This document shows positions 2,151 through 54,120 of a stretch of 64,000 nt of DNA, one piece after another. The notes beneath the pieces are model-generated. The model saw only the letters and a list, made by a program, of their open reading frames with translations, was not told where the DNA came from and made no database searches. This stretch comes from Eledone cirrhosa (Eukaryota): assembly GCA_964016885.1 (NCBI GenBank), contig OZ024742.1, forward strand, positions 298,716,001-298,780,000, given 5' to 3'. A program made the position numbers and the translations under genes. Each line of letters begins with the position of its first letter. Position 1 is the stretch's first letter.

Positions 2151-2366
2151 TTTCGTTTCTGAATTTGTTTAGCAAGATTCTTTATCTGAAATCGTGTGTT
2201 GAAACCGATATTGTTTTACTTTGGGAGGGTCATGTTGCCAATAAGAAACAGACGCACCAGTTGCTTTCACTTCAATTTAATTTAATATATATTTATAAAT
2301 TTACAAATTTATAAATTTCTGGTTGGTTGGTTGGTTCCACAACCAGATAGTTGTTTATATATATAT

Positions 2367-2411
2367 AGTCATAGTTCTTTCGTCACACACTCTGTGACCT
2401 CTTCAGTGACT
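2367..2411 (-). ncRNA. Minimal type I hammerhead ribozyme (family A 3' end)
   Basis: AGUCA-CUGAAGA-G-GUCACA-gagug-UGUGAC-GAAA-G-aa-CUA/UGACU. Confidence 0.85.
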
Positions 2412-2708
2412 GGGGATTTCTTTCTTCGTTTCTGTGCCTTTCCTTTCTTCTATCCTACGCCATTTTGTTTGTGTGTGGGTTGCGTGCTCAGTTTGCGCAT
2501 GCGCCACATCCGGGTGTCTGTGTGTGTTTGTGTTCATTTTTCTATTTTTCTATTTATATTTGTTTGTTTATTTATTTATTTATTGTTGGTTGGTTGTTTG
2601 TTCTATGTGTGTGTGTGTTTTCATTTTGTCTTGTGTGTGTTTTCATTTTGTGTGTGTTTTCAATTGTAAGTTGTTTGTTCTATGTGTGTGTGTGTTTTCA
2701 TTTTGTCC

Positions 2709-4028
2709 TTAATTGTAAGTTGTGATGTTGCTGTTCCGCTCATATTTTCTATTTAATTTTGGTTTTAATTCTTTTATGCTTACTGCCTCTGTAATTTGCC
2801 TAAACATTGCGTCTTTCTTGTGTGTGGATTCTATTTTTATTTCTATGCTCTCTAATTTACCCCTGTGTTCTATCTTAGCATGTTGGTAGAGCACAGATGA
2901 TTCTTTACTATCTTGGAGGTCTCGCCAGTGTTCATTTATTCGTTCCCCTATACTACGAGCTGTCTCACCTATGTACACTATATTTTTGTTTCTACATTGT
3001 CCTTCAGTACATCTTATGCTATATACTACATTTCTAGTTTTACAGTTAATATGGGGGCCTATTTTACAGGTTATACATTTCTTATCTATACATGAGGGTC
3101 TTTGGAACGGGTATGTCTTGCTAATAAGTGTTTTTACGGAGGTACCAGGTCTTTCTACTATCTTAATATTGAGATTATGTTTCTTTAGGGCCCTTCTAAA
3201 TTTGTAGGCTAGTTCGCCTCTAGGGGTTGTATTGATGAACATTACACTCTGGTATTTATTGCTATCATACCATGAGTTTATTCTATTGGCCTTGTTCTTA
3301 GTTCTTTCTATTCTATTCCAAAATTTGCTCCTATACAAGGGGCAGGTCCCATTTATGTCATTATTTACCATTTTTTCCCATTTGATTCTGGCTCCTTTAT
3401 ACACTCTGATTCTATCTCTCTGATTGTAGCCAGAGAACTGCATACGGTGGATGAAGTGTTGTATGTGTCGCTCTAGTTCTTCGGGGTTGCACATGCGGGA
3501 CACATTTCTCATCACCCGTACCAAATCCGCAATCAGTATGTTGATTTTGGTATGGTCCGAAATGGCCGAGTTTCGGTGGATCAGATGTTTGGAAGTCATG
3601 GGTTTGGCATAATGGGAATGGAGGATTTGTTTTTGGTTGTTAATAGTATCTAACCAGAGCTCTGTGTCTAGTACAGGTAATCGATGGTTGGGGTGTCTAC
3701 TTGGGTAGTCTATAGTAACTCTAATGCTCTGGTGGATGGAGTTTGCTATTTGCTGGATGCTTTCCATTGTGTTTTTCTCTGGTTCCTGACTGTTCTTTAG
3801 TGGGGGTGTCTTAACTACGATGTTTATATCATCTACGTAGCGGGAGTACATTATCAGGGTTAAGCTGTCTTCTAATTGTTCATTAAGTTTTTGTTTAAGT
3901 CTACTGTCCCACCATACCATGAACAAGTTAGCTATGTCGCCTGCAATGCTAACACCAATGGCTGCTCCTTCCTCTTGGGCATATGTTTTACCATTAAATT
4001 TGAACATATGTTCCTTAAGGGTTAATTT
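2709..4028 (-). CDS. PLE RT C-terminal half + GIY-YIG endonuclease (5'-truncated, uninterrupted)
   Basis: ORF 2709-4061; YVDD, thumb, CxxxxCxxC linker, NVVYSIRC...VYIGETARSIGERINEH. Confidence 0.85.
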   Translation of the reverse strand, partial: KLTLKEHMFKFNGKTYAQEEGAAIGVSIAGDIANLFMVWWDSRLKQKLNEQLEDSLTLIMYSRYVDDINIVVKTPPLKNSQEPEKNTMESIQQIANSIHQSIRVTIDYPSRHPNHRLPVLDTELWLDTINNQKQILHSHYAKPMTSKHLIHRNSAISDHTKINILIADLVRVMRNVSRMCNPEELERHIQHFIHRMQFSGYNQRDRIRVYKGARIKWEKMVNNDINGTCPLYRSKFWNRIERTKNKANRINSWYDSNKYQSVMFINTTPRGELAYKFRRALKKHNLNIKIVERPGTSVKTLISKTYPFQRPSCIDKKCITCKIGPHINCKTRNVVYSIRCTEGQCRNKNIVYIGETARSIGERINEHWRDLQDSKESSVLYQHAKIEHRGKLESIEIKIESTHKKDAMFRQITEAVSIKELKPKLNRKYERNSNITTYN

Positions 4029-4085
4029 AGCAAGAAGCATAATAGAATAGAGGCCCAGCAACTGGGAGAAGAATCTGCAAATGGC

Positions 4086-52800: not shown

Positions 52801-53020
52801 GGAGGAGGTTATAGTTCACTTGAAGCATTGTGTAATGAGGTATAAACGTTAGAATATGTGTAATAAGGCCAAGACAATGCAGATATGGACATAGAAAAAA
52901 GAATGCAATAGTGAAAGATATTGATGAGAATTCTCATCAATATCTTTCACTATTGCATTCTTTTTTCTATGTCCATATCTGCATTGTCTTGGCCTTATTA
53001 CACATATTCTAACGTTTATA
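52801..53020. repeat. Perfect spacer-less 180-bp palindrome (52841-53020) with a 40-bp one-sided extension, in (TA)n
   Basis: Arms are exact reverse complements around GAA|TTC at 52930/52931. Confidence 0.92.
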
Positions 53021-53709
53021 TATATATATATATATATATATATATATATATATATATATATATATATATATATATATGCTGTGTGTGTGTGCATATATAT
53101 AATCAATCATTATTTCCTTCCAGGTGTAAACATGTAATTCCACATAATTATTTGAATGTTGTAAGCCGTTCTTTCGATTGTTCTGTTATTTTAGTTTCAA
53201 TTTGACCCGAAATGCCTCTCGGATATACACAATCATTACTTGCTTTCTTTTTGAAAATAATACTGGCCACTTTATTTCATTTCTTTAATAACCCAAAACA
53301 TGTACTTTTCTTATCTCATAGTATCTGTAATATCTGTCTATCATTTATATGCACACTATTTACCAGTTTAAAAGCATATGATTGAAATAATCAATTCATA
53401 TTTTCATATTCCGATATTAAGTAAAATTTCCATTAAACGATTTTTTCAAAATAATGGTGCATTAATTTTTAACGGTCCATTTTGAAAAGAATATATTATT
53501 ATAAGTATTTCAAATATATTGATGAGACAAATTTATTGTAAATAAGTACATACCCATTCTTTTTCTGACAAAATAATTAATAATTAATATTCACTTTCTT
53601 CACCAAATTTTAGCAAAGCTATAGTTGTGTAGAGTGGAATGTGTGGGTGTTTGTGTACAGATAAAGGTACAGAGATAGACATACAGACAGACAAATATAT
53701 TTATATATA

Positions 53710-53917
53710 GTGGTAGAACACTGGAAGGTAATATCCGTAGTATTAGAGCACTCAGTCTATGGGACGAGTTAGGTAGAAGTGGTTACACAACAGTTAGTTC
53801 ACCATACCGAGAACAATTGTTTCACCTTAGCGGATCCTCAGCTCGTAATGGACATAGTTATACGTTCCGTATAACCATGTCCATTACGAGCTGAGGATCC
53901 GCTAAGGTGAAACAATT
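53710..53917. mobile_element. Short palindromic 3' end (family H) with HHR at 53808-53845 (minus)
   Basis: CGAG-CTGAGGA-T-CC-gctaa-GG-T-GAAA-C-aatt-GTT/CTCG; arms 53815-53864 and 53868-53917. Confidence 0.75.
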
Positions 53918-53930
53918 ATATATATATATA

Positions 53931-54120
53931 AGTTATTCCGGGTTCAATCGGGGGTAACCACAGTAAGTAAGGAACTCAATACATAGCAGAGTATAAATGT
54001 TTTAATATAGAAAAGCTTCTACAGGACTAGAACTGTTTCATTCGTGAGAAATCATCAGGATTCCTGATGATTTCTCACAAATGAAACAGTTCTAGGCCTG
54101 TAGAAGCTTTTCTATATTAA
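53931..54120. mobile_element. Family I palindrome, second copy
   Basis: Arms 54002-54060 and 54062-54120; CTGATGA-TTTC-tcac-GAAT-GAAA-C..GTC. Confidence 0.72.

Follow-up and report, generated by a model that had tools for sequence, protein, structure and literature searches.

Endonuclease-positive Penelope-like elements (PLEs) are known from inverted insertions with a tail on one side only, among them Adineta Pen2a, D. virilis Penelope, and Naiad/Chlamys (PMC3846280, PMC8557442, PMC2377424), and the origin of their inverted and tandem structures has been named an open question (PMC8557442). For the anole Poseidon element PAc, both target strands are cut and extended in vitro, and two reverse transcriptase (RT) start sites bound the tail; PAc is predicted to be a dimer, and its minimal template RNA is ~150 nt around the starts, from +20 to +172 (PMC11167929). 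In L1 twin priming (Ostertag and Kazazian, 2001, via PMC10760644 and PMC11702581), a single RNA is primed by both target ends, of which the second pairs through microhomology. These systems are compared here with ten palindromes in a 64-kb stretch of the 3.0-Gb Eledone cirrhosa genome (assembly GCA_964016885.1, contig OZ024742.1, positions 298,716,001-298,780,000), called the window below. The palindromes are inverted 3' ends of PLEs inserted in (TA)n. We consider it probable that both strands of one (TA)n cut prime RT on one RNA molecule, at two start sites.

One tail per inverted pair

All ten palindromes that a first-pass annotation had proposed in the window were recovered, in place or a few bases away, by self-comparison after simple-repeat masking. 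The arms are head-to-head in every case, so that element 3' ends face (TA)n at either flank; of these outer ends, one carries extra sequence (tailed, T) and the other stops at a TA-like motif (untailed, U). The annotation had recognized PLEs, with their known inverted pseudo-long terminal repeats (pLTRs) and tails, and the extra piece is indeed the published PLE tail. As it had described, the three family A untailed arms all stop at ...AACAATA(T) (6745, 27855, 38383), and the opposite arm has ~60 nt more, or 53-57 once the TA-like overlap is subtracted. The other extra pieces are also close to the lengths proposed: 62 nt for B (~65 proposed), ~55 nt for R (~50), and exactly 40 nt for K (52801-53020). 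The 105-nt gap in H (53710-53917) is present but not typical of its family, in which 17 of 18 one-tail pairs are 65-66 nt short. "Short arm" holds at the outer end; at the center, the untailed arm is often the longer.

Samples of arm ends from across the genome show the one-tail rule to hold across families, with short-arm ends that are not random but fixed in position within each family. A 26-mer from the family A end has 26,670 exact matches and its reversed control none, so these ends are not a matter of chance; 11,168 of the matches (42%) run on into the tail. Among the first 100, 54 lie in inverted pairs, making 27 divergent pairs within 5 kb. About half of such pairs should be one-tailed if the two ends were independent; 26 are (p=4e-7), 25 of them directly T/U and one (L034; L-numbers label the genomic loci examined) one unit further out. 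Thirteen of the 46 unpaired matches were fetched, with no T/T or none/none locus among them. When 30 A loci were instead selected for the tail, 20 had an inverted partner, none of them tailed; 16 of these partners stop no more than 3 nt from the short site and four elsewhere.

Family K is as regular, with 712 exact matches, 326 of them tailed. All 32 pairs among the first 100 are T/U, each checked by sequence (p=5e-10), and the 30 unpaired loci, all fetched, comprise 10 with a hidden small or mismatched partner (all T/U) and equal numbers of U-only and T-only copies (10 and 10). Three apparent T/T pairs in K (L211, L213, L214), like L034 in A, proved to be tail/no-tail one or more units out; a fourth, L212, runs into an N gap. 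An automated pass (1.19 Mb fetched), in which near-duplicate loci were partly retained and exceptions left uncurated, gave T/U counts of 20/22 for B, 18/20 for H, and 35/42 for I; C yielded two pairs. The gap between the two ends is 40 nt in K, 60 in A, 62 in B, and 65 in H, and ~59-68 nt with scatter in I. The "fixed distance" of the annotation is thus constant within a family, but a single universal value is ruled out, the range being 40-75 nt by family. One locus, L051, has a ~25-nt non-TA direct repeat at both ends, a possible target-site duplication.

Inverted layouts might also be made by assembly or amplification, since amplification can create inverted chimeras. Raw reduced-representation reads come from another study: 2,347 and 2,438 of them leave the element for (TA)n at window position 2208, and strand-switch joints arise from few start places; these are family-level reads rather than long reads across the window's own junctions. 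Against an artefact, the arms have independent post-insertion changes, element-specific stops, and different flanks, and the raw reads reproduce the short end and contain strand-switch joints. We give this explanation next to no weight. A second class of loose ends in the raw reads (464 and 525), at window position 2211, continues into other sequence, perhaps that of a relative with a different tail.

Arm lengths and shared A-to-G clusters

The annotation offered two routes to a palindrome: a cDNA primed in (TA)n folds back, or a second RNA is primed. Neither is supported as a general mechanism. In the first, for which self-priming had been proposed at junction palindromes of this kind (Gladyshev and Arkhipova, 2013), the tailed cDNA would snap back, copy itself, and stop where a TA motif anneals to the target, and the whole U arm would have to be present within the T arm. 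The two arms do copy the same segment, over 26-2672 nt and with poly(A) absent, and they are nearly identical. Of 54 pairs (26 K and 28 A, including the window copies), however, the 5' reach of U is the greater in 26 and that of T in 18, with the two equal (within 20 nt) in 10, so that fold-back fails generally. Tailed arms of ~11, 13, 29, and 37 nt, shorter than the tail itself, are joined to untailed arms of 1997, 760, 193, and 203 nt (L232, L223, L238, L233), and the 10 U-only K copies are likewise left unaccounted for. In favor of fold-back are the 10 pairs with equal 5' ends, three of them mid-ORF (open reading frame; L105, L110, L116), the longer tailed arms of L303 and L305, and the edits, described below, that the arms have in common. 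Fold-back may make a minority of copies; as the general route it is refuted unless kilobase trimming of tailed arms is routine, and overall we regard it as unlikely.

The second route would use two RNAs, one for each subunit of an asymmetric dimer and each with its own start site. The predicted dimer and the extension of both strands in vitro are in its favor, and it would explain overlapping arms without strand displacement. The arms speak against it. Their divergence, a comparison that the annotation had proposed, is low (35 differences over 17,328 columns in K, 52 over 6,090 in A), and they almost never differ at polymorphic or subfamily sites (2 of 751 columns in K, 34 of 1684 in A).

More telling are hyper-edited A copies, located by two degenerate searches (40 and 30 matches). 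Ten of the 11 informative pairs have a sense-strand A>G cluster common to both arms, with 32, 69, 34, 20, 23, 10, 30, 18, 22, and 109 shared changes per locus, counted relative to the nearest unedited comparator and so including some subfamily differences. Single-substitution controls were common to both arms in 0 of 11 (Fisher p=3e-5), which argues against routine gene conversion. The A>G pattern of L251 is found, genome-wide, on its own two arms only. In L054, L314, and L308, the edits are common to both arms, and the U arm has 277, 913, and 101 nt absent from the T arm while lacking the tail; neither arm contains the other, a further point against fold-back. From their one-strand bias, we infer that the clusters are products of ADAR editing; locus-specific edits on both arms then point to one edited RNA as the template. 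The two-RNA model is therefore largely refuted for family A, and as an account of these palindromes in general we rate it very improbable.

Some edited copies say more about their RNAs. Two RT passes over inosine might be expected to leave discordant A/G sites; there are a few in L303 and none in L304 or L316. In L303 and L316, dense A>G changes extend across the endonuclease (EN) coding region, and these RNAs were probably mobilized by protein from another RNA.

A different kind of single template would be a read-through RNA of an existing palindrome, copied whole from one tail start and passing its layout on. L312 (G000:C4:162,094,900-162,099,700) has the mirror edits expected of one edited hairpin transcript: its tailed arm carries 21 A>G changes and its untailed arm 31 T>C. 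It is only one of the 11 edited pairs; the centers of the palindromes differ between loci, and such inheritance leaves the first palindromes unexplained. We consider it highly unlikely as the usual source.

Start sites, joints, and twin priming

The A>G changes stop short of the outer ends. Over ~135 nt, from -75 through the tail and thus across both start sites, 1 of 779 A's is G, versus 434 of 1450 upstream. Six copies have G at 179 of 506 A's from -270 to -76 and at 1 of 278 from -75 through the tail; 11 further copies have 255 of 944 and 0 of 501. Within this tally, L309 and L310 may derive from a single insertion that was duplicated, and L251 and L054 were first found by the exact end 26-mer; outside it, the U arms of L305 and L306 have three single A>G changes in the zone. 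In L312, T>C changes fall inside the last 75 nt of the antisense arm while the sense arm has no edits there; the zone was apparently double-stranded in this RNA, and missing base-pairing is an unlikely cause. The zone could reflect protection by a bound protein, but selection to keep a recognition element intact is the likelier cause. Of the annotation's suggestion that a ribonucleoprotein footprint sets the distance, this much is supported: a stretch free of edits that covers the two start sites is compatible with an RNA element under binding or selection. RNA folds predicted for four start-site regions were no stabler than shuffles (z -0.93 to 0.99), and no conserved RNA structure is claimed.

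The two outer ends meet the target differently. The short end joins (TA)n through 4-5 nt of TA-like microhomology at a family-fixed position, as had been proposed. At the K tail end, the next bases in tandems are TTTC, leaving 0-2 nt of homology with (TA)n; these ends vary and often have added C's (C, T, TT, or TCCC preceding (TA)n), resembling slippage at initiation, while K untailed ends are uniform (TTTATA). In A, both ends are AATAT. A TATA within the K tail is rarely chosen, and in A the same is true of longer TA runs at -85 and -160, so position matters besides homology. The central joints differ from locus to locus and have 1-8 nt of microhomology or short templated inserts; in K, 7 of 17 joints without inserts overlap by 4-8 nt, and several others have short templated inserts. 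Microhomology together with templated inserts is the pattern of host microhomology end-joining.

An alternative suggested for published PLEs (PMC8557442) would put the asymmetry after synthesis: the GIY-YIG endonuclease cuts a transposition intermediate at its own TA site, removing one tail. The short end is in fact an AT-rich motif resembling the preferred site of the nuclease, and the anole enzyme's substrates include AT-rich DNA of its own pLTR. Such resolution requires an intermediate tailed on both arms, however, and alone it leaves untailed solo copies and tailed arms shorter than the tail unexplained; in vitro, both tail boundaries map as RT starts. It is decidedly unlikely.

Twin priming on one RNA would proceed as follows. 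The GIY-YIG nuclease would cut both target strands; one DNA end would be placed at the tail end without pairing, and the other would anneal by TA microhomology 40-75 nt upstream, both DNA ends occupying a single protein-bound RNA element that spans ~-75 to the tail end. The RT that trails would displace the leading cDNA, often stalling, and host microhomology end-joining would link the two cDNA ends. Either start site alone can yield a solo copy; with one primer the outcome would be a solo with an "optional" tail, and with two a one-tail palindrome.

Several observations weigh against this reading. Its intermediate has not been seen. No A>G excess was found in K, with 1 of 11 shared-private changes, so the single-RNA evidence rests on family A. 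The tailed arm of L251 matches an inner edited pLTR, and its U end lies at a distance of one 4-kb unit and belongs to another subfamily; its sites would then not be adjacent, or a second event would have followed. In L311 (G000:C3:328,615,000-328,624,900), the same 18 A>G changes are present on the tailed arm and in each of the two tandem pLTRs; they may have been inherited, or the tandem may come from one edited RNA via a circle or template jump. L312 is apparently a whole edited hairpin that was retro-copied, a different route. The one-tail rule has exceptions: A L057 is T/T with different tail variants (it may be two insertions), B L145 is none/none, and 7 of 42 automated I pairs are not one-tail; the R count was swamped by simple-repeat matches and is unusable. 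L316, a perfect palindrome over 2030 nt with 0 mismatches, fits fold-back equally well, and later hairpin trimming could have shortened the tailed arm at any one locus. In vitro, finally, the PAc start site showed no difference between strands and was non-homologous to the DNA (PMC11167929).

The families of the window and comparison with described systems

In family A copy 1 (2152-6745), the arms are 99.5% identical over 1819 nt. On the minus strand are its ~60-nt tail (2152-2211), which in tandem copies bridges the pLTR and the next ORF, and the tailed arm (2212-4028), made up of a pLTR with a hammerhead core at 2406, a GIY-YIG-type region, and partial RT. The untailed arm (4029-6745, plus strand) has RT and EN frames and a hammerhead core at 6547; it is ~900 nt longer on the 5' side and terminates in AACAATAT, followed by (TA)n. 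Copy 2 (27272-27855) is a pLTR-only palindrome centered on 27590/27591, with its tail on the left and arms 98.5% alike; in copy 3 (37373-38383), a tailed left arm (37373-37986) meets an untailed right arm (37985-38383) at 97% identity. A tailed solo without an inverted arm lies at 28369-28857 on the minus strand. The family A unit measures ~4070 nt; its frame is of the RT/GIY-YIG type, and its pLTR contains a hammerhead core. Its RVT_1 matches are weak (E=0.003 and 7e-5), and a GIY-YIG-like motif is apparent by eye, without a Pfam match. The frame contains CX4CxxC, absent from K; CX2-5CxxC before GIY-YIG is a feature of the Neptune clade.

Family K has a 3133-nt unit and an intact 860-amino-acid ORF with RVT_1 (E=8e-16) and C-terminal GIY-YIG (E=3e-5) matches in Pfam, and in full copies the ATG of the ORF sits inside the 40-nt tail. 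In the window palindrome, the tail is on the left and the arms are 100% identical. Partial tandems forming pLTRs occur in both families (K in L101-L104, L117, and L214; A in L249, L250, and L251). Many short K arms have 5' ends clustered at unit position ~2931 (on L102 as ruler), ~30 nt past a TATA-like motif, and this is likely the RNA 5' end.

Of the other palindromes, B (22461-22800) is untailed on the left and tailed on the right, and its tailed end recurs at 7725-7934, adjoining an RT ORF at 9254-11260 on the minus strand. R (18263-18760) has the same orientation and a hammerhead-like core at 18427. Two belong to family I, one at 49334-49510, untailed on the left and tailed on the right, with a hammerhead-like core, and one at 53931-54120 with its tail on the left. 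H has its tail on the left and a hammerhead-like core on both arms. The C-like palindrome (49673-49843, tail left) is the weakest of the ten, its arms being 79.5% identical over 88 nt. All five of these families are candidate RT/GIY-YIG elements: in B and C, the ends lie next to RT ORFs (7725-11260 and 11687-14795), and H, I, and R are assigned from their ends. By regular-expression scan, A has a hammerhead core with stem II, and H, I, and R have shorter stems; K has a variant core, judged by eye. Among the best 150 of 418 matches listed in an Rfam scan, there were miRNA-hairpin matches only and no hammerhead.

The insertions are flanked by impure (TA)n tracts of 1.4-2 kb (161-2151, 35992-37370, 38380-39953), with different PLE families nested in the same tracts. 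Family R (22835-23259, 30773-31200, 18263-18760) looks like a ~500-nt non-coding unit with a ATGCAAAT octamer and a hammerhead-like core. The C-like and I tails (49700-49740, 53960-53990) have a common TATTGAGT motif, and L198 is an I end with a C-type tail. Elsewhere in the window, a 716-nt inverted repeat (98%) surrounds GIY-YIG-like frames at 45465-46278, within a region (44692-47169) that also has a 234-nt tandem, and two LINE-like copies (32360-35506 and 60821-64000) are 77.6% alike and without an inverted arm.

The inverted one-tail layout is already known; the near-strict pairing, twin priming on a single RNA with duplication, and the edit-free map appear to be new. No literature match to these three was found; older PLE papers that lay outside the search (Arkhipova, 2006; Evgen'ev and Arkhipova, 2005) may already describe the pairing, and Figure S2 of PMC11167929, also outside it, may bear on these points. 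Compared with the inverted PLEs in the published accounts available, the tails here are 40-75 nt (versus 30-40), and the one-tail state, described there as frequent, is here counted and near-strict. Those accounts suggest either a self-priming step with an antisense template or resolution by a nuclease; here, the A>G changes are on the sense strand of both arms.

The likeness to L1 twin priming, in what is available of its description, is in the two primers on one RNA, deduced here from shared hyper-editing in family A, in the microhomology at the second priming site, and in the joining of the cDNAs by microhomology end-joining. The L1 cDNAs, however, start at poly(A) and copy adjacent, non-overlapping segments, giving a 5' inversion; here there is no poly(A), and the same segment is copied for up to kilobases, producing a duplication that would need strand displacement. 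A broader statement is advanced tentatively, as not quite an even bet: in PLEs, the same stretch of one RNA may be reverse-transcribed twice, with two polymerases at two sites in one 135-nt protein-bound element, one site with and one without target homology, the second displacing the first cDNA. ADAR marks would then count the templates (one), give the sense strand, map the required element in vivo, show trans mobilization of disabled RNAs, and, in L311, hint at tandem pLTRs made from one RNA. The two-site model would explain the "optional" tail, and also why tens of thousands of hairpin-forming inserts occupy this genome and feed RNA editing.

The closest biochemical counterpart is PAc. Its minimal RNA resembles the ~135-nt edit-free zone in size; the portions of PMC11167929 available draw no connection between its two sites and the opposite ends of an inverted insertion, and, unlike in PAc, the upstream site here always has TA homology to the target. 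The genome data translate into sharp predictions for the PAc in vitro system: one RNA, two sites, one per strand, and strand displacement.

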